NCBI GenBank assembly: GCA_042570925.1
Contig: JBHPFX010000001.1
Location: forward strand, 52,397 to 116,396
Direction of reading: 5' to 3'
From: Patescibacteria group bacterium
Lineage (GTDB): Bacteria; Patescibacteriota; Patescibacteriia; UBA10025
Length of the DNA: 64,000 nucleotides
Shown: in pieces, positions 51,537-64,000 of the stretch
How positions within the stretch are numbered: position 1 is the stretch's first letter
How the letters are laid out: each line of letters opens with the position of its first letter
The notes under the pieces: model-generated
Told to the model about the DNA's origin: nothing
The model's database searches: none
Seen by the model: the letters and a program-made list of their open reading frames with translations, nothing else
Made by a program: the position numbers and the translations under genes

Positions 51537-51582
51537 TACCCCGACCAGTGCTAGTCACGATTGGTCGGGGTGTTTTTTTTAT
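51537..51582 (+). terminator. rho-independent terminator
   Basis: CCCCGACCAGTG-ctagtcacgat-TGGTCGGGG followed by TGTTTTTTTTAT. Confidence 0.8.
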
Positions 51583-52151
51583 TTACCCCAGACACTCATT
51601 GCTTTCTCCGGGGAAGTTTGTATTGCTTTAATGACAGTTTCAACCACTTGAGGAATAAGTTCATCAAGCTTTTTTTTGTCATCCCGGGAGAAGTTTGCCA
51701 TGACAAATTTATTTGTCTCACCTTTTCGCTGCTTGTCAGTTCTCGAATCGATTCCTATCCGAAATCGATAGAAATCTTTTGTTCCAAGTATCTGAATAAT
51801 ATTCTCAACCCCGCGATGGCCTGCAGAAGATCTGCCATGATGAATTTTTAGCTTTCCAAACGCTAAGTCAATATCATCATGGATAATCCACACATCTGAC
51901 GGATTTGCCTTATAGTACTGCAGGGATGCGTTTACCGCGTTACCGGTGAGATTCATAAAAGTAGTTGGTTTTGCGAGGATGATTTTCTCTTTACCAATAC
52001 GCCCTTCTGCCACTAGAGCATGTAAGTTTGATTTCATGCTAAAAGGTGTTTGAAGTTCTTTGGCAAGCGCCTCCACTATCATATATCCGAGGTTGTGCCT
52101 CGATTTTTCGTACTTTGATCCTGGATTACCGAGTCCAATGAGTATTTTCAT
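51579..52151 (-). CDS. pth: peptidyl-tRNA hydrolase
   Basis: MKILIGLGNPG…TRHN.G…, the canonical Pth N-terminus with catalytic His, and the GHNG-like motif (GHRGVENI). Confidence 0.9.
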   Translation of the reverse strand: MKILIGLGNPGSKYEKSRHNLGYMIVEALAKELQTPFSMKSNLHALVAEGRIGKEKIILAKPTTFMNLTGNAVNASLQYYKANPSDVWIIHDDIDLAFGKLKIHHGRSSAGHRGVENIIQILGTKDFYRFRIGIDSRTDKQRKGETNKFVMANFSRDDKKKLDELIPQVVETVIKAIQTSPEKAMSVWGK

Positions 52152-52152
52152 A

Positions 52153-53493
52153 TTATCGAAGCCGGGTTGTAAGTGTTATAGACAGGGGAGTACCGACAAA
52201 GCCAAATGTTTCACGTAAGTGCTTCTCCATGAATCTGACAAATGACGGATGGATTGTTTCAGGATCATTGACCGTAAGTCGGAATCGGGGAGGATCAGTG
52301 CGTTCTTGTACGAGTGAGAATATGCGGGGCTTTTTCTTTGCTTGCCGTTGGTTTGGCCCATGTTTGCCGAGAAATTTTATTAAAAACGTTTTCAATTCTT
52401 CATCAGGTATGTGCTTAAGCTGTGATTCTCGGATAGTGTCAGCGAGCGCAAGCAAGTTTCGTACACGCTGTTTCTTTGTCGCGGAGGTAAAAACCAGCGG
52501 GGCCCATGGGATCATTGAAAGGACATAGCGATAATATTTTGTGAATTCTTTCATTGAATCAGGAGTTTTATTTTCTACCAGATCCCATTTGTTTCCTACA
52601 ATGATAATTCCTCGCCGAGCTTTCCGTGCTAAATCAACAACATGAAAGTCATGCATCGTAAGCCGTTCAGTGACATCCGTAATGACTACAGCAATATGTA
52701 CTTTTTTAATTGCCTCGGCACTTAAAAGGTTTGCGGCACGCTCAATCGAATCGGACACTTTTCGTTCTTTCCTAAGTCCGGCAGTGTCTATAAACACGTA
52801 AGTTTTACCTTCGTGGGTTATTCGTGTATCCCTTGGTTCACGGGTCGTGTGGGGAAGTGGTGATTCGATAAGCCGTTTTTCCCCGATAAGAGCATTGATA
52901 AAAGTTGATTTACCCGTGTTTGTTTTTCCAATAAGCGCGAGGCGGATTTCGGAACCGGTCTTTTCTACTTCTTCCAGAGTAGTTTTTTTAATCTTTTTTA
53001 CGATTTCATCAAGAAAATCTCCAACTCCCATTCCTGTTGTTGATGAAAGGGGAAAAATTTCCTTATATCCAAGTGAGTAAAAATCTTTACTAATTGATCC
53101 GCCATCCTTTGGACTGTCGAGCTTATTAATCACTAGCATGACCGGCACACCTAGCTTCTGTAAATGTTTGGCGATGAGGCGGTCTTCGTTCGTTACCCCT
53201 GTCTTTCCATCCACTAACTGGCAAATGACACTTGCGGAACTCAGAATAGTACCTACTTGCTCTTGAACCGAAGTGTCAATGACGGTTCGTTCTTTTCGCT
53301 CCAATCCGCCACTGTCGATAAGCAAACAATGTACGTCGCGCCATGCAATTTCAGCTTGGTTTGAATCACGAGTCGTTCCAGCTATGGTAGACACCAGGGC
53401 CTGTTTTTTACCCAAAATAATATTAAAAAGCGTTGACTTGCCAACGTTTGTTCGCCCGACGAGTGCCACGACGGGAAGTGCTTTTTTGCCCAT
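52153..53493 (-). CDS. der: ribosome-associated GTPase Der (EngA)
   Basis: Two tandem G-domains (GRTNVGKSTLFN…DSGG ; GKTNTGKSTFINAL…DTAG…NKWD) and a C-terminal KH-like domain. Confidence 0.9.
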   Translation of the reverse strand: MGKKALPVVALVGRTNVGKSTLFNIILGKKQALVSTIAGTTRDSNQAEIAWRDVHCLLIDSGGLERKERTVIDTSVQEQVGTILSSASVICQLVDGKTGVTNEDRLIAKHLQKLGVPVMLVINKLDSPKDGGSISKDFYSLGYKEIFPLSSTTGMGVGDFLDEIVKKIKKTTLEEVEKTGSEIRLALIGKTNTGKSTFINALIGEKRLIESPLPHTTREPRDTRITHEGKTYVFIDTAGLRKERKVSDSIERAANLLSAEAIKKVHIAVVITDVTERLTMHDFHVVDLARKARRGIIIVGNKWDLVENKTPDSMKEFTKYYRYVLSMIPWAPLVFTSATKKQRVRNLLALADTIRESQLKHIPDEELKTFLIKFLGKHGPNQRQAKKKPRIFSLVQERTDPPRFRLTVNDPETIHPSFVRFMEKHLRETFGFVGTPLSITLTTRLR

Positions 53494-53517: not shown

Positions 53518-54987
53518 CTACAGACTTGTTCCTGTGCTTTCAACCTGATCAAGACCGAGAACGATAAGGAAGTCGGCTGATGGCATTGTTGGAGATTCCT
53601 CGATATCTCCAGTCGGATTCTGAAGAGAATTGATAGTGACAGGCGAAGAGGCATTTACGAGGAATCCCGGGAGCGTAGTGCTTACCTCTGCGTCGAAATG
53701 ATCTTTTAATCTGGAAAGGGAATAGGGCTTCGTTCCGCTGGTGAGATCATATATTACGGTTGTTTCATGGTCTTGTTCTACGGCATTGCCAATATCGACG
53801 ATGGTAAATTCGTCAGCTGATAACTTCTGTGACGCCTGATATGCAAGTCCTGACACCTTCGTTCCGTTCTGAATTTCGATTTGCGGGTTTTCTTGGATAA
53901 GAGTTTTTTCTGAAAAGATATTCTCTGCGAGGTCATGAATTTCGTCATAGGATCCTGAAATTGGCTGTAGAAGATATGCTCCATCAACAGATGTGACCGG
54001 CTCTAAAAGTCCTCCAGGAGAAGTATCAAGCACCTTGGTAACGATACTGTTTTGTTCGAGGTCATCGCCCATTTCAGCAAGACGCAGTATTTCCCATATC
54101 TGTAAGTCTGTTCTATTGTGTTCCCCAAGATCTTCAAGAGCCGAAATTATTCGCTTTGGGGCAATGAGCGTCTCAAAGGCGAGCCCCTGGTCTTTAATCG
54201 CGAGGAGCACTTTTTGCTGACGCTGAGATCTGGCAAAGTCTGATCCCTCTCCATTTGTCCCGTGTCTGGAGCGTACATATTTCAATGCAGTCTCACCATT
54301 CATTTTTTGATATCCTTTTTCGAATTTCAGGAATTGATATCCAAAGTTGTTATCCGGATATTGATAGTCCGTAAAACCCCTTTCAACATCTACCCAGATG
54401 CCGCCGAGATCGTCAATTATTTTTTCGAAGCCGGTGAAGTCGATTCGCATGAAATAGTTAATTTGCTGGCCGGTAACCTGCGAAACCACCCGACTCAGGA
54501 GCACCTCACCTCCCCCAGGATAGTCGTTTGTATGGCCAAATGCCATTGCGTTATTGATTTTTCGGTACCCATATTCAGGTATTTCAACGTATAAATCACG
54601 GGGGATTGAAAGCATTGCCACATTACCCGTTGAAGGCTGGATACTCGCGAGAATGATGGTATCTGCGAGATATGCGCCCTGATGTCCTTCACCACCTATT
54701 CCGATAAGTAAAATATTAACTCGATCCTGAGCCTCACCGCGAAGCTGTTTGTCAGGACTTAAGATAAGGTGCTTGAGTTGTTCAAAAAAAGCGACCTTCT
54801 CTCCGGTCTCCGTGTTGGTACTGTTTACAGAAAGAATAACTTTTGCCGTCACGCCAAAACCAAATCCCAAAAGCACCATACCCAGGAGCACAAAGAGTAG
54901 ACCAATTTTTCTACTTTTTACTTTAGTATCCTTAAGTTTTGGCTGATCGTTTGTTTCTGGTTCTACGTGCTTTTGAAAGTCAGGCAT
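53518..54987 (-). CDS. LytR-CpsA-Psr (LCP) family cell-envelope phosphotransferase with LytR_C domain
   Basis: TM anchor, then an LCP core (LLIGIGGEGHQGAYLADTIILASI…MLSIPRDLYV) and a C-terminal LytR_C-like region. Confidence 0.8.
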   Translation of the reverse strand: MPDFQKHVEPETNDQPKLKDTKVKSRKIGLLFVLLGMVLLGFGFGVTAKVILSVNSTNTETGEKVAFFEQLKHLILSPDKQLRGEAQDRVNILLIGIGGEGHQGAYLADTIILASIQPSTGNVAMLSIPRDLYVEIPEYGYRKINNAMAFGHTNDYPGGGEVLLSRVVSQVTGQQINYFMRIDFTGFEKIIDDLGGIWVDVERGFTDYQYPDNNFGYQFLKFEKGYQKMNGETALKYVRSRHGTNGEGSDFARSQRQQKVLLAIKDQGLAFETLIAPKRIISALEDLGEHNRTDLQIWEILRLAEMGDDLEQNSIVTKVLDTSPGGLLEPVTSVDGAYLLQPISGSYDEIHDLAENIFSEKTLIQENPQIEIQNGTKVSGLAYQASQKLSADEFTIVDIGNAVEQDHETTVIYDLTSGTKPYSLSRLKDHFDAEVSTTLPGFLVNASSPVTINSLQNPTGDIEESPTMPSADFLIVLGLDQVESTGTSL

Positions 54988-55203
54988 GATGTTTGAAAGT
55001 AATGGAATTATACGGATCTAAACGCTATTCGTCAATTCTCACTCTATTTATTAGTACTACATTCTTCTCAAAAGCGGTTATTTCATTTGGCGGGTGGACA
55101 AAACCATTTTTTTCTGTTATACTCGTGTTAAGAAAACTTGGTAAGTGAGACTAATATTTCCCCTAAGTAGAGCCAAAAATAGTTCAAAAGGGAGAAAAAA
55201 GCT

Positions 55204-56835
55204 TTGTTTAATACAGTACGAAAAAACCTCACTTCTGGGAGGCAAGAAGATAAGCCTATAGACTTTGACTCGCTTCCACAGCTCCTTACTCTTGAACAGG
55301 TAAGTGAGTTTCTTGGTGTACACCCAAATACGCTCAGGAATTGGGATGCAAATGGTAAGTTGCGTGCAGTGAGAGTAGGGAAGCGACGCGACCGTAGATA
55401 TGATAAGAAAGATGTACGCATCCTGTATCTCGCAAAAAACGGATTAGATGATGTTCAGCAAGAACCCGAGGTTGCTGGTGATGAGCCAAAGAAAGAGTTG
55501 GCGCCTGTTAAGAAACCAGTGTTCAATTGGTCAATGGTTCATCTTGTCATTGCCGCACTTTTTCTTCATGTCGCAGTTGCTGCAAATGACACCCCTGGAC
55601 TTGTGCTTGGCACCCAGATTGAGATGTACAGGCTCGAACCCGCTAATTGTACCGGTTGGACAAATGCAGAGCATGCAAAACGAATAAATGCACTGTCAAC
55701 ATCCGCCCTATCTGACTTCAATGAGGGAGTATCTGCCTATTACTCCACATCAAAGCTTTTTCCGGTAGAAGACGATATGGCTGAATCGCTTCAAGCTCCG
55801 GTTTCAGATATCGTGTGTTCCGGTTATCTGTTACCAGAAGATGTATCCACAGAAACAGTGCCGGAATACGTATCATTAAACGAAGCCCGGGTACTCATAT
55901 CAATGGGTGCAAAAAGCTTCAAAGGAAATGAAGACGTTTTGTCATTCTCTTACTCTCTTGATGGACAAACATGGATTCCACTAGATTCTTTCGGAATACT
56001 TGACGAGATGAGCAACTCAACACACGAAGGTTACTGGGCATTTCCAATACGGGTTGATTCTTTTGAAGAAATTTCTCAAATACAAGTAAAAGCCGATTAC
56101 AATGCTGTGCCAGCAATTGAAGAATCGCTGGTATATGTAGACGGAATAATAATTGAAGCTGATATCGGCGAATTGGATAAGACATCAAAGAATATTGTTG
56201 ACAGCGTGAAAGTAGAAAAGAGAGATTACGATGTATCAGAGAATCCTGTTGTATCAATTGATGTTGAGGAGCGCTCAGCCCTGTCATTTATCGGCATAGG
56301 CACCACGGAAAGAACAGTGAAAGAAGCAACTCTTACGAGACCTGACGGAACCCAAAAGATTGTTGCGTTAGAAGAAAAAGAGGTACAGGAAGGGGATATC
56401 AAGCGGGTTGAATACTCTGTGTCAAAAGATGAGCTGGCTCGCGGAGGGGAGTATGAACTGAGCTTTAGCGTCGAGCAGGATGGGGAAGTTGAAATAGTTA
56501 CAAAAAGTTTTTCATGGGGCGTGCTGGCAATAAACCCTGATCAATCTGTATATCGCCCGGGCGATCTTTCAATATTATCGATCGGAGTATTGGATGATAA
56601 GGGGGGTATTGTATGCGATGCAGACATTGAGCTTCTCATCACTGATCCAAATGGAAAAATTCTACCCAAAATGACTACGGAAAATGGCGGTATCGCAGTT
56701 TCCGACAAGTGCCATATCAAGGATATCTACTTCGAACCCGATTATTCAGCGTACTTTCGACCAAAAATTTCCGGTACGTACAATATTCAACTCACCGCAA
56801 CCCACGTGAATGGTACGCATACGATCAGCCAATGA
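55204..56835 (+). CDS. membrane-spanning protein with N-terminal cytoplasmic MerR/excisionase-type HTH and large extracytoplasmic domain
   Basis: HTH_17-like segment (LTLEQVSEFLGVHPNTLRNWDANGKLRAVRVGKRRDRRYDKKDV), one TM helix (WSMVHLVIAALFLHVAVAA) and about 430 aa outside the membrane. The stop overlaps the start of the giant gene (ATGA). Confidence 0.6.
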   Translation: MFNTVRKNLTSGRQEDKPIDFDSLPQLLTLEQVSEFLGVHPNTLRNWDANGKLRAVRVGKRRDRRYDKKDVRILYLAKNGLDDVQQEPEVAGDEPKKELAPVKKPVFNWSMVHLVIAALFLHVAVAANDTPGLVLGTQIEMYRLEPANCTGWTNAEHAKRINALSTSALSDFNEGVSAYYSTSKLFPVEDDMAESLQAPVSDIVCSGYLLPEDVSTETVPEYVSLNEARVLISMGAKSFKGNEDVLSFSYSLDGQTWIPLDSFGILDEMSNSTHEGYWAFPIRVDSFEEISQIQVKADYNAVPAIEESLVYVDGIIIEADIGELDKTSKNIVDSVKVEKRDYDVSENPVVSIDVEERSALSFIGIGTTERTVKEATLTRPDGTQKIVALEEKEVQEGDIKRVEYSVSKDELARGGEYELSFSVEQDGEVEIVTKSFSWGVLAINPDQSVYRPGDLSILSIGVLDDKGGIVCDADIELLITDPNGKILPKMTTENGGIAVSDKCHIKDIYFEPDYSAYFRPKISGTYNIQLTATHVNGTHTISQ

Positions 56836-59800
56836 CTTTGGAGGTTACAGCGTATAAGGACTTTACCGGAGAGATCATTGAGCGAGTTCCGCGTGAATTT
56901 GGCGTCGAAGTGGAGTACGGAGGTGCGAGCAGAGACATAGAAGGTGTACTTGAATTAGTGTGGGACACTTCAATATCTAAGGGAGATACCATCACCCTTG
57001 GTTATACATTTAAATCACCGGAAGTGAGCCCCGCATTGTATCATCTTGGTCCGGCAACAATTGGAGAATGGTCTGAAGGGCGTGAGTGGCAGTTGGCAAT
57101 TGATCCAACATACATGTATCTCTATTGGGATGGAGCCGGTCCGCCTACTGGATGGTCGGTTGTTTCAACATATGATGGTAAATTTGCCCGTGGTGAAACT
57201 GCTGCAAATTTCGGTATAACTAGTGGAAATGCAACTCACACTCCTACCATAGCTACTCAATCGCCTACAAGTCAGCCAGGTACAACAAAATTGGCAAATT
57301 CTGGATTTGGTTATTCAAATGCTTCTGGCACTCACACACACGCTGTTATTGGAACGACAATTGGATCGGCAAACAATCTTCCGGCGTACAGGGATTTAAT
57401 CCTAATTAAGAATGATACTGGAATTCCTGCCACGATCCCTGGTGGTGGTATCGCATTTTTTGATGACGATCCTGGTTTACCTGGGGCGGATTGGACCAGG
57501 CAGAGTGCTCAAGACGCAAAAATGACTCGCACAAATAGCTCGGTCGCAACTGCTGGCTCTGATACCCATACCCATACTATTACCTGGGCTGCACCTGCTA
57601 GTGGTCGAGCGGGGGCTTTTCATGAGGACAATTGTATAAAAGGTGGATCTGCCGTGACCCACGGACATACAGCACCATCAGCTGGTGCGACTACAGGCAT
57701 GTCCGCTCTACCCCCCTATATCGAAGTAATTGTCGGAAAGGCCGATTCAGATACTTCGGTTCCTTCAGGAATAATACCGATGTTTGACGCCGATCCAGGA
57801 GCTGGATGGGATCTACGTTCAGATTCTGGGGATGATTTCTATCAGAACTTTGTTCGAGGGGCAGCTGCGTATAACGGATCATCCCAAGGTGCTACTACGC
57901 ATAATCATGCGCAGGAGACAAGTGGAAACACTGGGTCGGGTGGAAGTGTTAATGGCGGATGTGGAAGTGGAACAGTTACGCTTGCGGGGAGTAATCACAA
58001 TCACACAGAAACAGTTACCTTTACCACAGGTACCGACAACATGCCGGAGTATTGGAACGTCGTATATGCAGAAATGGCGACAACGGCCGATACCGTTTCA
58101 GGGTCTGTGAAGGGGACGGATGAATCAAGCTTTATTGGCAATCCTCCTTGTGATGGTGTGACTGCTGCGGTTTCACTTAAAATAAACGGAGCTGGCACTG
58201 ACACGACGGACTGCGATAACACAACGGGCAATTACGAGTTCTCTGGCCTTACTTTTAGTGCGGGCGATACGGTATCAGTCTACCTAAATAGTAATTCTAC
58301 TGAGAAAGCTAATTTGAATATGGTTATCGGGTCGGCGAACGTCACGGATGCGGACTTATATGAGGAAAAAGTAATAGTGCGTGACGAAAACGATGGAACA
58401 TCCACTATTTTGGATATGGTCGATTATGATAATGATCAAAATTCGACTGATATGCTCTTTGATGCCGATGATCTTGCTACGGATACACTCAGTACCGAAT
58501 CAGGCAAAGAACTTCATATATGGACCGGCGATACGCTCGATCCAAATGGCGATGTAGATACAGGTAGTGATATTCATATTGATGATAGCGCGACAATGAA
58601 TCTCGATACTGCTACGTCGACCATTGGAGGCGATATCGACGTTGATACAAGCGCGACATTGAATGTCAGTGCGAGTGCTACGGTTAATGGAAATGATGTT
58701 ACAACTACCGGAGCGGTAAATCATTCCGCGGGAACTTTTACTATTGGTGATAGCACGACCGAAGACTTTATTGTAAATGGCGGGACGGTAACATTGAGCG
58801 GCGGCACGACAGTCTTAAAGGATGATTTTGACATTAATGGCGGAACGATCACGATCAGCAATACCATGAATATTAATGGAAACTCTGCTGCAATTGTCGA
58901 TCAAGATGGTGGAACTTTAAACATCAATGCCGGAGCTGATGTAAATGCTCTTGGTGCAAATGCTACGTATGCTATTGATGGTGCGAGTACTATCCTAAAT
59001 CTTAATGGCGGATCTTTTGATTTGGGTCAGTATTGGTTTAATAATGAGGGGACGGTTAATCTGAACGGCGGTGATCATAATATCGGGACAGGGGGACAAT
59101 TTCGATTTGGAAATGCCGCAGGAAAGGGGAATGTGATGGACTTCAATATGACTGGTGGGGAGATTACAACGCCAATCATGTATACATTTGATACGAGTAC
59201 GTTAACTACGACAACAGTGACTGGAGGTACTATCAATCTCGGTGTTGACGGAGTCAGCGATGTAATTGGTGAACAAAATACTGATAGTCATGAGTTTTAT
59301 AACTTTGTAATTGAAGAAAATGCGTCGTTTTGGGCATCAAGTACGGTACCTCTCAATCTTGTCGGATCGTTTACCATTAATAATGGAAAATCATTTGATG
59401 CAAACGCGGAGATGATCGTTGCTTCTGGTGGGTGGGTGAATAACGGGACATACACGTATGACACAAGCACAGTGACGCTTCTTGGAGGTAATATCAGCGG
59501 TACATCTGACACAACTTTCTATAACCTGAATATTGGTGATGCAACAACCACCGGGACAGTAACTTTGACCGGCACGGATGATCCGATTGTCAATGGTACG
59601 CTTGATGTTGATGCGGGCGATACTTTAAGCATTGGCGCAAGCCGCACTGTCCAGTCAAATAGTACCGGCTCACTCACTTTAGATGGAACGATATCCGGAG
59701 CAGGGAAACTTATCTATGAGCCAGCAGCCGCGTTCCCGACGTCTGGCACCATTTCTTCCATCCTACGATTTGATACGACAGTCAATAACCAGACAATGGG

Positions 59801-62800
59801 TGCCACGAGAACATACGGCGGGGCAGTGGAAATTTATAACAACAGCGCATCAGCTCGAAGTGTGACCGGAGCTGCAGGTACGATTACCATGTCGTCCACT
59901 CTTGATATTTCGAGGGACGGAGCAGGTGGAGTGACACTTGAACTCAACACGAATGATCCGACTACAATTATTGGGGATGATGTCACTATCGGTGTAGGGA
60001 CCACTCTGTCTGCAAACAGTGCAAATGGAATCACCATGAATGGGAGCTTTACGAATAGCGGGACATTTACGAGTAATAATGGAACCGTTACATTCGGATC
60101 CGGATCACCCGAGAACATTACAACTGGTGGAGGTAGTGGACAATTCTACAATCTTACGTTCGATGGTACAGGCCCATGGACACCGCTAGCAAATGAAATC
60201 AGAGTGGGTGGCGACCTTCACATGGTGGCAGGTACTCTTCAAGGTTCTCAAGATTTATGGGCGTTCGGAGATATAGAATGTAATGGTACATGCGGGACTA
60301 TCACCTTTAGCAATAATTCAGTATTCATTATGGGTGCTGGACAAAATATCGGCACTAATGTAGCTGAGGGAGATGTATGGACATTTCATAATCTTGACTT
60401 TATAGGAGGCAATGTGACATTCAATGGATCTGGGACTGGCACAATTATCGTCAATGGCACTATGCAATTTGTAACAGGAACAGCTGATAACGAAACAAAT
60501 GATCGGAATATTGATGTTGTTGATGTGATAATTGCTGGCGGGACATATCAGGCATCATCATCGGCTACGTTTAAAGTATCGGGTAGCTGGACAAAAAATT
60601 CAGGGACTTTTACCCCAAACAGCGGCACGATTACATTTGATAATGACGGAGCTTCAATAGGGGGTTCTCAAGGTACCAATTTTAATAACCTTACTATTGA
60701 TCCCGCGGCTCCTCATACTAGTCCAGGTACAGTATCAATTGACATTTCTAGTGGCTATATACTCGTTAATGACACATTAAACATTGCATCAAATGATTCG
60801 GTATCGATAGCAGTAAATGATATGCTCACTATCGCTGGGGAAACAGGGTCGATAACACTCAACGGTACTATCGAAGGAAGCGGAATACTCCGCTACTGGC
60901 CAACATCAGGCTTTCCAGATACCGGAACAGTCTCTTCTATTGTTAGATATGATACATCATATGGAACAGGTCACACGATTACAGACCGAACCTATGATGG
61001 AGATGTAGAGTTCGTAGGTTACATTTCAGCTAAGACACAGACTGCAGATGCCGGCACTTTTATCTTTAACGGGGACGTGCTTATTGATTATCTTTCCGCG
61101 TCACATATCGTGGACTTTATCACCAATGATCCCGATGTCACGATCGAAGGATCATTGACCATTGAAGCTTCGAGTGTGTTTCAAGCACCGAGCTCATTGA
61201 CGCTTAATGGTGATTATTCTAACAGTGGGACGTTTACCGATGGCAGTGGAACGGTGACACTCGATGGATCAGGACAACAGACTTTATCAGGCACGATGAC
61301 AGGGGAGTCAGAATTTAATGATTTAACAATTACAAATAACTCGGGAAGTTATGCGGGTTCATGTGGTACTCCAACGTATAGTGTCATCTTCGCAGCTGCC
61401 GCAACTATTAATGGTACCTATGAAATTACGACTGCAGGTGTGAGAGTCCAATACCTTGCCGGAGCTAATTATACCGTAAACGGAGAAATCAATTGGACGG
61501 GTAGCGGAGGGGATAGTAATCTAATAGTTTTTAGAAGCTCAACTACCAGTGTATGGAATCTCATTGTTGATGCTGGGGCTACCCAAACGGCTGTGTCATA
61601 TGTAGATGTTTCTTATTCATATGCGGATGGCGGAGCTACCATTGATGCTGACGACGGTACTAACATCAACTGTCTCAATAACTCCGAATGGGACTTTGAT
61701 GCTCTGCGGAATATTTCGGGTTATGTCAAAGGAACAGACGAGTCAAGTCACATCGGTAATCCTCCATGCGATAATTTAACAAATAATATCGGTCTACGAA
61801 TAAATGGCGGCTCAGAATTTTTAGAAGAATGTTCAAATGCAGGAGAAACTGGAAGTAGGGATTTTTACTTTGCAAATTTGGACGTCGTGCCCGGTGATAA
61901 AATTACGATTTATATAAAAGGCGAAACAGAGAAAGCCAATCTTGTTTTGGTAGCATCAGGAACAGATGTGAATGATCTAGAGCTTTATGAAGATAGAGTT
62001 ATTGTACGAGACGATAATGATGGAACAATGAATGTTATTGATACAAATACATGGGATAACGGCGACGACTCTGCAAATATGCTTTTTACCGCAACTGATG
62101 CATCTCCCGATACGCTCAGTGTTGAGGCCAACTACGAACTGCACGTGTGGACGGGTGATACACTTGATTCGGAGGGGACTATCACGACGCAAGGGACGGG
62201 AGATGTCCATGTAGATGACAATGCGACGATGTATTTTGACAATGCGACGAATACGGTTGCCGATGACATATTTGTGGATGCTGGAGCGATAGCATATATT
62301 GATGCAAATACATTTGTGAATGGGGGTTCCATTACTACTACTTCTACTGGTGTAGTTGATACAAGTTCAGGTACTCCTACAGTTACCATGTTTACATCGG
62401 GTGCGATAGGTGGAGGCAGTGGAGATATCACCATCTATGATCTTGCAACTATAGGGGGTGGGACAACTTCAATAACCGGTACGGGAACGAATACTATTAG
62501 CAACGGAATTTCCGTTGGAGATGGGACTACTTTAGATATCCAACAATCACTTTCAGTTGATAGTGTTGGTTTGGGTGATTTTGCTACAGCTGGTAGTGGA
62601 TCTGTCACCACAACGTCGGGTACTCCACTCGTTACCTTAGGAAGTGGCTGTGACATCGGAGGTGGCTCAGGATCAATTACGTTTCACGATCTTACCTTTG
62701 GTATAGGTACCCATACTTTTAGTTCTGATTTCACGGTAAATAATGACTTAACATTTGGTGCAGGTGGAGTTATTTCAGAATTAACAAGCACTGTGACCAT

Positions 62801-64000
62801 GGCAGGCACTGATGGTACGGGTACGCTGATAGGAGACAATGAACATCTCTATAATCTCACTATTGACCGCCCGGGCTTAGCGACTAATATCTCTCTTTCC
62901 TCATCCGACATCGGAATAACAAACAATCTCGTTGTCGAAACCGATGATACCTTCACAATTGGTACCGGACGTACGGCATATTGGTATGGAGACGGCTTCA
63001 CACTTAATGGAACTATAAGTGGAGATGGAAAGTTACAAGTAGAAACTACTAGTCCTATTGCCACAACTGGAACGTTTTCAGCCGATATATATTATGACGC
63101 GACTGATTATGCAGAAATGCAAATGTCAGCCCGAACGTATGGCGGTGACGTGACGATTTATAATGATCTTGCCCAAGACGTGATTCCCGGAGGCTGTACA
63201 GGGGGTGAGCACATTCCCTACTACAACGATGATAATAAACATTTCGTACAAGTTACCCACGCAATAGGCGAGCAAAAGGTTATCATGCTTGCCGGCTCGC
63301 ATGTCATTTCCGGCAATTTATATATGAATGCAAATGATGACTGCGATATTTGGCTGAGTGGCACTGAATACAATCCAACAGTGACTATCAATGGCAGTAT
63401 CGAATATCTTAGCGCCCCTCTTGATGGTAGAGAAGAAATATACACAGGTGCGTCAAACACCTGGACAGTAAAAAATGATATTAGTATCTCCGTTGGGGAC
63501 TTTAGAGCTGATCCAACGAGTACCCTCGTGCTTGATGGTTCAGCAGACGGCTCAGCCACAATTACGTCGGGTGGTTCAAACACCGAATATGGAAATCTGA
63601 CATTATCCGGGGGAAATATAACGTTTTCAGATAGTTATCATCAAGTTTATGGAAATCTGGACATGACGGGTGCGAGTTCTATTATTCCCGGTTCTTCAGA
63701 TATTTGGATGAGAGGCAGTTCAAAAAATATTATTGGAGCGAATAGGACGCTTTATGACCTAACTATTAATCCGGTTTCTACAAGCACGATCACACTTCAG
63801 AATTCCGATCTTACTGTCTCAAATGAGTTGACGGTGAGTGATGGGGATACTCTGACAATCGCATCAGGCAGGACACTGACTCATCTTGGTCCCGATATCA
63901 TTCTTACCGGATCGCCGGGTGGCACTATCACCGGGGCAGGAACATTACAATTTACGAGTGCATCTGGTGGACCCAGTGCTGATGGAATAATTAGTTCGGT
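56832..64000 (+). CDS. giant repetitive cell-surface protein (partial, >2380 aa; phage-tail-collar-like domains, CarbopepD_reg-like domains and beta-helix-like Gly/Thr/Asn repeats)
   Basis: The frame is continuous from the ATG at 56832 to the window end, which I verified at several points. Only short shadow ORFs occur on the other strand. There are HTH/HNH motif repeats (GTHTHAVIG, SDTHTHTITW, THNHAQE), two copies of a roughly 180-aa module (~58100–58640 and ~61718–62250), and GGTxTLxG repeats. Confidence 0.75.
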   Translation, partial: MTLEVTAYKDFTGEIIERVPREFGVEVEYGGASRDIEGVLELVWDTSISKGDTITLGYTFKSPEVSPALYHLGPATIGEWSEGREWQLAIDPTYMYLYWDGAGPPTGWSVVSTYDGKFARGETAANFGITSGNATHTPTIATQSPTSQPGTTKLANSGFGYSNASGTHTHAVIGTTIGSANNLPAYRDLILIKNDTGIPATIPGGGIAFFDDDPGLPGADWTRQSAQDAKMTRTNSSVATAGSDTHTHTITWAAPASGRAGAFHEDNCIKGGSAVTHGHTAPSAGATTGMSALPPYIEVIVGKADSDTSVPSGIIPMFDADPGAGWDLRSDSGDDFYQNFVRGAAAYNGSSQGATTHNHAQETSGNTGSGGSVNGGCGSGTVTLAGSNHNHTETVTFTTGTDNMPEYWNVVYAEMATTADTVSGSVKGTDESSFIGNPPCDGVTAAVSLKINGAGTDTTDCDNTTGNYEFSGLTFSAGDTVSVYLNSNSTEKANLNMVIGSANVTDADLYEEKVIVRDENDGTSTILDMVDYDNDQNSTDMLFDADDLATDTLSTESGKELHIWTGDTLDPNGDVDTGSDIHIDDSATMNLDTATSTIGGDIDVDTSATLNVSASATVNGNDVTTTGAVNHSAGTFTIGDSTTEDFIVNGGTVTLSGGTTVLKDDFDINGGTITISNTMNINGNSAAIVDQDGGTLNINAGADVNALGANATYAIDGASTILNLNGGSFDLGQYWFNNEGTVNLNGGDHNIGTGGQFRFGNAAGKGNVMDFNMTGGEITTPIMYTFDTSTLTTTTVTGGTINLGVDGVSDVIGEQNTDSHEFYNFVIEENASFWASSTVPLNLVGSFTINNGKSFDANAEMIVASGGWVNNGTYTYDTSTVTLLGGNISGTSDTTFYNLNIGDATTTGTVTLTGTDDPIVNGTLDVDAGDTLSIGASRTVQSNSTGSLTLDGTISGAGKLIYEPAAAFPTSGTISSILRFDTTVNNQTMGATRTYGGAVEIYNNSASARSVTGAAGTITMSSTLDISRDGAGGVTLELNTNDPTTIIGDDVTIGVGTTLSANSANGITMNGSFTNSGTFTSNNGTVTFGSGSPENITTGGGSGQFYNLTFDGTGPWTPLANEIRVGGDLHMVAGTLQGSQDLWAFGDIECNGTCGTITFSNNSVFIMGAGQNIGTNVAEGDVWTFHNLDFIGGNVTFNGSGTGTIIVNGTMQFVTGTADNETNDRNIDVVDVIIAGGTYQASSSATFKVSGSWTKNSGTFTPNSGTITFDNDGASIGGSQGTNFNNLTIDPAAPHTSPGTVSIDISSGYILVNDTLNIASNDSVSIAVNDMLTIAGETGSITLNGTIEGSGILRYWPTSGFPDTGTVSSIVRYDTSYGTGHTITDRTYDGDVEFVGYISAKTQTADAGTFIFNGDVLIDYLSASHIVDFITNDPDVTIEGSLTIEASSVFQAPSSLTLNGDYSNSGTFTDGSGTVTLDGSGQQTLSGTMTGESEFNDLTITNNSGSYAGSCGTPTYSVIFAAAATINGTYEITTAGVRVQYLAGANYTVNGEINWTGSGGDSNLIVFRSSTTSVWNLIVDAGATQTAVSYVDVSYSYADGGATIDADDGTNINCLNNSEWDFDALRNISGYVKGTDESSHIGNPPCDNLTNNIGLRINGGSEFLEECSNAGETGSRDFYFANLDVVPGDKITIYIKGETEKANLVLVASGTDVNDLELYEDRVIVRDDNDGTMNVIDTNTWDNGDDSANMLFTATDASPDTLSVEANYELHVWTGDTLDSEGTITTQGTGDVHVDDNATMYFDNATNTVADDIFVDAGAIAYIDANTFVNGGSITTTSTGVVDTSSGTPTVTMFTSGAIGGGSGDITIYDLATIGGGTTSITGTGTNTISNGISVGDGTTLDIQQSLSVDSVGLGDFATAGSGSVTTTSGTPLVTLGSGCDIGGGSGSITFHDLTFGIGTHTFSSDFTVNNDLTFGAGGVISELTSTVTMAGTDGTGTLIGDNEHLYNLTIDRPGLATNISLSSSDIGITNNLVVETDDTFTIGTGRTAYWYGDGFTLNGTISGDGKLQVETTSPIATTGTFSADIYYDATDYAEMQMSARTYGGDVTIYNDLAQDVIPGGCTGGEHIPYYNDDNKHFVQVTHAIGEQKVIMLAGSHVISGNLYMNANDDCDIWLSGTEYNPTVTINGSIEYLSAPLDGREEIYTGASNTWTVKNDISISVGDFRADPTSTLVLDGSADGSATITSGGSNTEYGNLTLSGGNITFSDSYHQVYGNLDMTGASSIIPGSSDIWMRGSSKNIIGANRTLYDLTINPVSTSTITLQNSDLTVSNELTVSDGDTLTIASGRTLTHLGPDIILTGSPGGTITGAGTLQFTSASGGPSADGIISS

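Follow-up and report, generated by a model that had tools for sequence, protein, structure and literature searches.

We examined a 64,000-nt stretch of a Patescibacteria group bacterium genome (GTDB lineage Patescibacteriota, Patescibacteriia, UBA10025; assembly GCA_042570925.1, contig JBHPFX010000001.1, forward-strand positions 52,397 to 116,396), hereafter the window, and within it an open reading frame, ORF1, with the frame that follows it. An initial annotation had read the two as translationally coupled genes, a membrane-tethered regulator and a giant adhesin. Comparison with homologues indicates instead that they are parts of a single giant surface-protein gene, headed by a helix-turn-helix (HTH) domain and interrupted in this copy by the loss of 82 nt. 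The features of the locus, in window coordinates, are as follows.

55095-55123, forward strand: predicted sigma-70-type promoter of the giant gene, TGGACA-17-TATACT (10 of 12 matches, with TG before the -10).
55138-55178, forward strand: 41-bp element, TTGGTAAGT-N17-CTAAnnTnAGCCAAAA, candidate operator for the HTH (position weight matrix, conservation).
55190-55194, forward strand: Shine-Dalgarno sequence GGGAG, 9 nt 5' of the TTG start codon (read from the sequence).
55204-56835, forward strand: ORF1, 543 codons, 5' fragment of the giant surface-protein gene, cut short by a frameshift.
55282-55437, forward strand: winged HTH, residues 27-78, of HTH_17 / MerR-N / BldC-Xis type, predicted to be cytoplasmic (Pfam, PDB sequence search, PHROGs, AlphaFold2 (AF2)).
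55519-55584, forward strand: hydrophobic segment, residues 106-127, a signal anchor or else the h-region of a signal peptide that can be cleaved (Kyte-Doolittle 2.0, AF2 helix).
55618-56832, forward strand: three extracytoplasmic beta-sandwich domains, residues 139-325, 335-440 and 441-543 (AF2, Foldseek, Pfam).
56824-56835, forward strand: deletion scar ATCAGCCAATGA, where 82 nt present in all homologues are lacking (alignment of 21 homologous proteins, comparison with the closest relative, locus L011).
56832-64000, forward strand: rest of the giant gene, at least 2,389 codons in a frame other than that of ORF1, running off the window (0 stops; homology).

ORF1 and the overlap of its stop codon (TGA, 56833-56835) with a downstream ATG (56832-56834, together ATGA) are real sequence features, as the initial annotation had it. 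The downstream frame contains no stops over 2,389 codons to the window end, against 121 and 227 in the other two frames. The boundary between the two, however, has the properties of a frameshifting deletion scar inside one gene rather than those of a junction between coupled genes. A nucleotide comparison with L011 shows that the window lacks 82 nt, corresponding to 27 conserved codons plus 1 nt, exactly at this point. The segment that fills the gap (27-28 aa, for example TFIVEERPSFTVKRTGPTRVFPVLYQP in L011) is conserved in each of the 21 homologues aligned; its place is after the final residue of ORF1 and before the first of the downstream ORF, and it includes the last strand of an MG2-like domain. 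The supposed start Met of the downstream ORF is the conserved internal M of QPM(T/K/Q)LE, in which QPM precedes a TLE motif, and no Shine-Dalgarno sequence lies upstream of this ATG. In the ORF1 frame the junction reads ACG ATC AG/C CAA TGA (slash at the break) and in the downstream frame GAT CAG CCA ATG ACT. The ATGA overlap is thus a by-product, because the conserved QPM-T codons CAG CCA ATG A, one base out of phase, read AGC CAA TGA.

Relatives of ORF1 carry both parts in one chain. A word-indexed protein search with ORF1 returned few relatives, among them an 810-aa single-chain protein, in which residues 119-272 match ORF1 at residues 387-542 (E 8e-26) and residues 302-404 match the downstream ORF at residues 1-91 (E 3e-11); more generally, in single-chain homologues the stretch after the ORF1-like part is homologous to the N-terminus of the downstream ORF. 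Searched with phmmer, 1.84 billion cluster representatives yielded 2,510 hits, the best being proteins of 1,000-7,700 aa with an ORF1-like region near the N-terminus. When the 150 listed proteins were re-scored with three parts of ORF1, about 26 proved to hold the HTH (residues ~15-100), the hydrophobic segment (~100-160) and the ectodomain in one polypeptide of 2,251-6,677 aa, and the remainder had an N-terminal signal sequence only, with no HTH. A genome scan covering one genome per GTDB species yielded 24 loci with full-length matches, all in metagenome-assembled genomes (MAGs) of Patescibacteria, the closest (50% identity) in GW2011_GWA2_48_9. At none of these Candidate Phyla Radiation (CPR) loci does the gene pair of the initial annotation recur; in 24 of 24 a single unbroken ORF begins with the HTH and continues for 2,300-4,000 aa or more, or as far as the contig end. 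The combination of HTH, hydrophobic segment, ectodomain and giant repeat region in a single frame is therefore intact in all 24 relatives and broken only in the window copy.

From these comparisons we conclude that ORF1 and the downstream frame are almost certainly one ancestral gene. The opposing model, in which ORF1 is a stand-alone, membrane-tethered ToxR-like regulator ATGA-coupled to a separate giant adhesin gene, we regard as very improbable. It can draw on the reality of the overlap and of both long ORFs, on the NCBI entry, where ORF1 from this MAG is a separate protein named "HTH domain-containing protein", and on another lineage (L086), where an HTH_17 gene that is truly separate runs over the start of a giant paralog. 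It is contradicted by the continuous ORF in the 24 loci and in the roughly 26 cluster representatives, by the loss of conserved codons exactly at the boundary, and by the origin of the ATG as an internal Met codon with no ribosome-binding sequence. The downstream product, moreover, has neither a signal peptide nor a transmembrane segment: its maximum Kyte-Doolittle (KD) value is 0.49 in the first 165 aa with a 15-residue window, KD(15), and 1.06 over 2,389 aa for KD(19), and a protein with no hydrophobic segment could not be exported by itself. It was also not found in the protein database in which ORF1 is present. The only other apparent split, the 538-aa protein P0056, was considered as a second case and rejected, since the sequence downstream of it in its locus, L089, is unrelated and AT-rich. 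On that JGI contig (Ga0490040_009346, L089:2486-3103) the GC-rich P0056 is joined to the AT-rich sequence inside the MG2-like domain, and the contig is probably chimeric. ORF1 is thus the N-terminal 543 residues of a giant protein and not an independent sensor-regulator gene, and the 543-aa "HTH domain-containing protein" in the public MAG, being a piece of a disrupted giant gene, does not belong in counts of regulators.

Two other explanations of the junction were set aside. A programmed frameshift is a poorer account than deletion, as ACGATCAGCCAATGAC contains no slippery heptamer and 27 conserved codons have been lost. Upstream of its ATG, homology of the downstream frame (NPREWYAYDQPM compared with PTRVFPYIYQPM) is convincing only for QPM; the remainder overlaps codons that are clearly homologous in the ORF1 frame.

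The window copy would be either a recent pseudogene or an assembly variant, and of the two we consider a biological deletion the likelier. A possible microhomology of ~3-5 nt at the break (CAG/ATCAG) may have been its origin, and the absence of downstream stops implies that the lesion, if real, is recent. The same stop-free 2,389 codons look as if the gene were still functional, which would also be expected if it were intact in the organism and the gap an assembly or consensus artefact, a reading compatible with the single-gene account. The source is a MAG, and another public contig of the family is, as described, visibly chimeric. Against an artefact, the loss of 82 nt flanked by such short microhomology is atypical of short-read assembly errors, GC content is unbroken across the junction and both sides come from the same ortholog; a scan of the metagenome collection with ORF1 found no close relative for comparison. 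We consider an artefact unlikely, but by no means negligible.

The intact family has a consistent order: a BldC/Xis-like winged HTH; a variable, often basic linker; a hydrophobic segment with an A-x-A motif; Ig/MG-like domains; and then thousands of repetitive Thr/Gly/Ser-rich residues with no family match. No giant surface protein with a DNA-binding domain at its head was described in the literature searched, a limited set that included the survey of giant genes by West-Roberts et al. We regard the HTH-headed giant surface protein as a new architecture on a known theme, of which the window copy is a disrupted member.

The HTH is the best-conserved part of the N-terminal 550 aa. Its assignment to the excisionase/MerR (HTH_17) type, made in the initial annotation, agrees with Pfam scores above threshold: HTH_17 matches residues 27-71 with 37.5 bits (gathering score 27) and MerR_1 matches ORF1 with 31.6 bits (gathering score 21.6), and 18-20 of 21 family members have an HTH_17/MerR-type match. 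The HTH families matched by ORF1 in a Pfam scan at E up to 1 were HTH_17, MerR-type and generic HTH only, with no match to Trans_reg_C, the OmpR-type winged helix. By PDB sequence search, the nearest solved structure is the mycobacteriophage excisionase Xis gp37 (4j2n, E 6e-6), and BldC (6amk, E 9e-4, and 6ama) and the MerR protein SkgA are also among the nearest; PHROGs places the domain in excisionase and MerR-like regulator families. The AF2 model of ORF1, built on 21 sequences (mean pLDDT 83), predicts the HTH confidently (pLDDT 92-95) as a winged fold of strand 27-29, helices 30-37 and 41-49, hairpin 55-67 and helix 68-78. There the fold finishes and a disordered linker follows (83-108), without the coiled-coil dimerisation and effector domains of MerR. 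Fifteen positions (L24, P25, H40, N42, T43, R45, W47, D48, G51, L53, R57, G59, R61, D63 and R64) are invariant in 21 sequences whose overall identity is only 25-40%, a degree of conservation that argues for a selected function. Taken together, the Pfam score, the Xis/BldC homology, the conservation and the AF2 fold suggest that the HTH is functional and binds DNA.

The same domain occurs outside the giant-gene family. A further 56 loci were matched via the HTH only. Nearly all encode stand-alone proteins of ~60 aa with 55-69% identity to the ORF1 HTH, and these come from Saccharibacteria and numerous other CPR lineages. Their genes lie 0-30 nt upstream of the next gene, often overlapping it. 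Every one of the ten downstream genes tested belongs to restriction-modification (R-M) systems, with C5, N6/N4, Eco57I-type and type III methylases and SNF2/ResIII/PLD proteins. The loci can be listed in one line.

L024-L080, for example L028:10001-13311, L057:2511-4917 and L060:2813-4070: stand-alone HTH loci, heads of R-M/defence operons.

The position expected of an R-M controller, a small HTH gene directly 5' of R-M genes, is that of the stand-alone homologues and not that of ORF1, which is fused to a surface protein. Classical R-M controller (C) proteins are Xre-type HTH proteins, and R-M controllers regulate their own expression through C-boxes; the stand-alone proteins look like a CPR-wide, HTH_17-type counterpart of them. 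Judged by its genomic settings, the HTH behaves as a portable controller module that heads costly or dangerous genes and is here fused in frame to its cargo.

A second line of evidence comes from the intergenic region. The promoter sought upstream of 55204 was found as the predicted sigma-70-type sequence at 55095-55123. Promoters of the form T(G/A)GACA-17-TATA(C/A)T occur in 10 other loci of the window's class (class A). The 41-bp element that follows includes the boxes TTGGTAAGT, CTAA and AGCCAAAA, has a fixed length among loci, and, with up to 3 mismatches allowed, matches nowhere else in the 64-kb window. Scanned with a position weight matrix, 20 of 24 HTH-bearing loci have it once in their 20 kb, directly 5' of the giant ORF, a count that includes 7 loci outside the set from which the matrix was built; no copy is present in 8 HTH-less relatives. 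The element takes one of two rigid placements: it follows the end of the -10 by 12-14 nt in 11 loci, among them the window (14 nt), and in 9 Kerfeldbacteria-type loci the -35 of a strong TTGAC(A/T)-17-TAxAAT promoter starts 17-19 nt after it. RNAalifold gave no consensus structure or pairs for the element, and Rfam nothing above noise. The fixed phasing with the promoter hexamers in two arrangements and the lack of RNA structure point to a protein-bound DNA site, for which the element is a candidate. Direct repeats resembling TAAG, the kind of site to which BldC/Xis-class proteins would bind cooperatively and head to tail, can be read in it by eye (alignment A2). The initial annotation had suggested a DNA-binding factor specific to the adhesin locus; this remains plausible, with indirect backing from the conserved promoter-side element, but such a factor would not be the product of a separate gene.

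Several other identities for the element were considered and rejected. As an RNA hairpin or known RNA it fails by the RNAalifold and Rfam results, and the pairing seen by eye in some loci is absent from the window, L006 and L011. As a small ORF it is confined to 10 codons in the window and L006, with no conservation elsewhere (alignment A2). As a sigma-70 promoter in its own right its boxes are wrongly spaced, and canonical promoters adjoin it. A second operator was sought in the intragenic AATGGTAAGTTG, which covers the HTH codons for N-G-K-L; other loci spell G-x-L with many different codons, and the likeness is a coincidence.

The account that we favour, and consider probable on balance, is that of one giant gene carrying an 82-nt deletion, whose HTH serves as a cis-encoded autoregulator. 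The HTH would be a controller fused to its cargo and would bind the 41-bp element beside its own promoter, ~12-14 nt downstream of the -10 in the window's class and, in the Kerfeldbacteria type, at a site ending 17-19 nt upstream of the -35. Since every giant protein brings one HTH with it, the level of HTH would track that of the product and could provide feedback on a very costly gene. A regulatory role at its own locus gains support from the single copy of the element per locus and its two rigid placements, from the R-M setting of the stand-alone homologues, from the separate HTH_17 genes that abut HTH-less giant paralogs in L086 and L087, and from the precedent of M.SsoII and M.Ecl18kI. 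For the specific proposition that the HTH binds this element and autoregulates the giant gene, we put the chances slightly short of even.

Several observations weigh against the favoured account. The association of the HTH with the element is purely correlative, and another factor could bind the element instead. The 8 HTH-less loci that have no element are also non-syntenic paralogs, which leaves a weak correlation confounded by phylogeny. Four HTH-bearing loci (L003, L004, L005 and L010) have no element above the score threshold, with a weak match of 12.5 in L010. The leaders of the stand-alone genes offer a partial parallel. They contain TTGTAAACTAATGGTAAGT or AATGTTARCAAATGGTAAGT, the shared motifs end in (A/T)ATGGTAAGT, and one leader of a stand-alone HTH gene heading R-M genes reads ...AATGGTAAGT. 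The giant-gene leader of L006, AATGTTAAAAATTGGTAAGT, is identical to one of them at 18 of 20 positions. In 16 kb of upstream sequence a GGTAAGT core was observed 12 times against ~2.3 expected, an enrichment in favour of a regulatory role, though related genomes inflate the count. A 20-nt model of the stand-alone leaders, however, gives the giant-gene leader the top rank at no more than 3 of 24 loci. Full homology of the two kinds of leader was therefore rejected, and only the GGTAAGT core is robustly shared. The window copy may, in addition, be an artefact, as weighed above. An HTH of a bitopic membrane protein can also serve to bind another protein: RodZ has an N-terminal cytoplasmic HTH of Xre type (HTH_25), one transmembrane segment and an outside domain, and its HTH binds MreB, not DNA. 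RodZ resembles the giant-gene protein in its bitopic layout, predicted for the latter, with no homology between them. MerR-like winged HTH proteins without a coiled coil likewise have non-transcriptional roles, as in Xis and RacA (PMC5859096).

These last cases suggest a different role, in which the HTH would be a protein-interaction or architectural module, anchoring the giant protein to a partner in the cytoplasm as RodZ does, or tethering a site on the chromosome to the membrane in a RacA-like or transertion-like manner while a protein of 4,000 aa or more is exported co-translationally over minutes. Xis and RacA are architectural or anchoring proteins of the appropriate fold (PMC5859096), the HTH is membrane-proximal by construction, the 41-bp element would be equally suitable as a tether site, and transertion is documented for other membrane-tethered regulators (PMC9977878). 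We nevertheless consider such a role unlikely. The closest homologues are free 60-aa proteins heading R-M operons, a setting that controllers, not anchors, typically have; the fixed spacing of the element from the -10 or -35 points to an interplay with RNA polymerase; and a conserved A-x-A motif after the hydrophobic segment speaks against a permanent tether.

The hydrophobic segment bears on both the autoregulatory account and its alternatives. It is the sole hydrophobic stretch of ORF1 (~106-127, Kyte-Doolittle 2.0), with an AF2 helix at residues 109-129. The 105 residues N-terminal to it include 21 K/R, and it is followed by an acidic/neutral stretch and, further C-terminal, by invariant Cys residues. 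These features fit the topology proposed in the initial annotation, in which a hydrophobic segment separates a MerR/excisionase-type HTH in the cytoplasm from an extracytoplasmic domain; the arrangement is strongly conserved and tied to the adhesin locus. The proposed "single TM helix" holds as far as there is one hydrophobic segment, but the A-x-A motif leaves permanent tethering unassured.

In essentially all family members [AVLI]-x-A followed by [EDGN] stands 10-13 residues before the first ectodomain strand (LxPxxCxGW), the spacing being longer in the window and L011, and the Ala of A-x-A is nearly invariant in alignment A1. HTH-bearing members provide the examples VQA/EE, ARA/GQ, ALA/DG and VAA/DT (slash after the motif). 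In the window the segment ends in HVAVAA followed by ND (AVAA/ND; residues 123-129, 55570-55590). The motif is also present in HTH-less members, some of which have ordinary short signal peptides. As read by inspection of the sequences, it fits the -3/-1 rule for signal peptidase I, with small residues at -3 and -1 after a hydrophobic h-region in the window sequence. In place of a short, positively charged n-region there would be one of ~105 aa that includes a folded domain. Kerfeldbacteria-type members have a short h-region (13-15 aa) and then a polar c-region, and class A members have hydrophobic stretches of ~30 aa that are more anchor-like. Given the conserved A-x-A, the "TM helix" may be a cleavable signal peptide. 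Another type of enlarged n-region was seen in HTH-less proteins (P0045, P0035, L084:2761-3060 and L085:2554-2900), which have Arg/Lys-rich cytoplasmic N-tails of 60-100 aa before the signal sequence.

Under the autoregulatory account the HTH would be either tethered, as in ToxR, or parted from the ectodomain by signal peptidase; if cleaved, an HTH-signal-peptide stub would remain, from which later release is possible. Taken further, this becomes secretion-coupled release: signal peptidase would free the ectodomain and an intramembrane protease would release the HTH stub, yielding one soluble regulator per exported protein. The occurrence of the A-x-A and [EDGN] pattern in HTH-bearing and HTH-less members alike fits this scheme, as do the short h-region and polar c-region of the Kerfeldbacteria type. 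The anchor-like class A stretches do not, and no releasing protease was identified. We consider the scheme rather unlikely. We judge as quite improbable its most explicit version, in which a folded BldC-like n-region leaves a cleaved stub that would count exported giants one-for-one and feed back on the promoter via the 41-bp element. We know of no precedent for a folded domain within a signal-peptide n-region. Such a protein would, if real, be a transcription factor coupled to secretion, of which bacteria have no described example, and a cleaved signal peptide would imply a new coupling of secretion to transcription.

The region beyond the hydrophobic segment had been described in the initial annotation as having no recognisable fold. 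AF2 and Foldseek show three beta-sandwich domains, the third MG2-like and without its final strand. The Foldseek matches of residues 139-543 are MG arrays of complement C3 and alpha-2-macroglobulin, RbmA and AgI/II, with E about 5e-7 and TM-scores that are low (0.11-0.36) because multidomain chains were compared. Pfam MG2 scores 21.7 bits on ORF1, below its gathering score of 32.8, and matches in 5 homologues, at up to 1.4e-10. In the model, the supposed "sensor" domain is the first three immunoglobulin (Ig)-like domains, a membrane-proximal stalk, of an adhesin-like protein. The likeness to alpha-2-macroglobulin and complement C3 MG arrays and to Ig-like adhesin stalks such as RbmA and AgI/II is at the level of fold; in contrast to alpha-2-macroglobulin, the MG2 score of ORF1 is sub-threshold and no thioester or bait region was seen.

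The giant-gene protein shares parts of its design with several known systems. It resembles ToxR, CadC, TcpP and transmembrane regulators in general (PMC10269533) in the predicted layout of an N-terminal cytoplasmic DNA-binding-type domain, a single hydrophobic segment and an extracytoplasmic C-terminal part. It differs in that the HTH is BldC/Xis-like and not OmpR-type Trans_reg_C, the outside part is a surface protein of 2,300-6,700 aa and not a small sensor domain, the hydrophobic segment carries a signal-peptidase-like site, and regulation is predicted only. Having no Trans_reg_C, ORF1 is not a member of the ToxR family. It does fall under the broad definition of Demey et al. 2023 (a Pfam DNA-binding domain and at least one predicted transmembrane segment), a definition that is purely predictive. 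The view expressed in the initial annotation, that membrane-tethered regulators normally use winged-helix domains of the ToxR and CadC kind, is at odds with that survey, where Trans_reg_C accounts for only 6.9% of predicted transmembrane regulators (PMC10269533, Table S1A). As MerR, MerR_1 and HTH_17 are already listed there, in 386, 350 and 151 of 50,302 predicted transmembrane regulators, the HTH type alone is not novel.

BldC, the lambda-type and mycobacteriophage Xis proteins and RacA (PMC5859096) are alike in sequence, in the strand-helix-helix-hairpin-helix fold and in the absence of a dimerisation or effector domain. Those proteins are small and soluble, however, whereas here the domain forms the first 80 residues of a giant exported protein and its DNA binding is predicted. 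A parallel for a regulator module at the start of the gene or operon that it controls is provided by M.SsoII and M.Ecl18kI, in which a regulator domain is fused N-terminally to the product controlled (PMC3978073, PMC2760811), and by the R-M C proteins. The cargo here is a surface protein and not an R-M enzyme.

Patescibacteria are thought to be host-attached, and little is known of how they control or sense their surface machinery. Here the conserved HTH head and the promoter-phased element provide a concrete connection, open to testing, from their surface to gene expression. The portable module of HTH plus leader, moreover, also heads R-M operons across CPR phyla.

An HTH is found beside the giant-protein family in another form. 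At two loci (L086:2650-2830 and L087:1000-1190) a separate HTH_17 gene of 56-60 aa (MEQLLTLKEVTEILRVSERTIYRYIDSGEL...) precedes an HTH-less giant paralog, and in L086 its stop codon overlaps the giant ATG (TAATG). This is an independent association of an HTH with the family.

The downstream ORF has several regions of internal repetition. Between window positions 57100 and 58120 (downstream aa ~90-430) there are 5-6 repeats with His-x-His (THTH, HGHT, HNHA, HNHT), each followed by (P)PY or PAY. They had no match in Pfam, PDB sequences or PHROGs, and a tail-collar-like identity, suggested by a possible likeness to metal sites of phage tail-collar and fibre proteins, is without support from these sources. 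A module of ~180 aa (...VKGTDESSxIGNPPCD...LHxWTGDTLD...) occurs twice, at ~58090-58650 and ~61500-62060 (aa ~420-600 and ~1560-1740), and the remainder consists of Thr/Gly/Ser/Asp/Asn-rich repeats without a Pfam match. In three complete homologues (P0012, P0015 and P0019) the last ~150 residues form a common C-terminal domain ending ...G(S/T)Y....T(Y/V)......F, which may be a cell-surface attachment module; the window ends before that region.

Gene order around the locus is shared with relatives. Three neighbours lie upstream on the opposite strand.

53518-54987, reverse strand: LytR-CpsA-Psr (LCP) gene, divergent neighbour (Pfam LytR_cpsA_psr 1.3e-40; with a LytR_C domain).
52153-53493, reverse strand: Der GTPase, syntenic neighbour.
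51579-52151, reverse strand: peptidyl-tRNA hydrolase (Pth), syntenic neighbour.

By tblastn, 16 related loci have a divergent LCP gene directly upstream, accompanied by Der, Pth and a 1,056-aa protein. Judged by this synteny and by homology, a Patescibacteria clade has a syntenic giant surface-protein gene in single copy (2,300-6,700 aa), of which the window gene is the local ortholog. The LCP gene has a promoter of its own (TTGACG-17-TATAAT, 55035-55007, reverse strand) in the same intergenic region as that of the giant gene.

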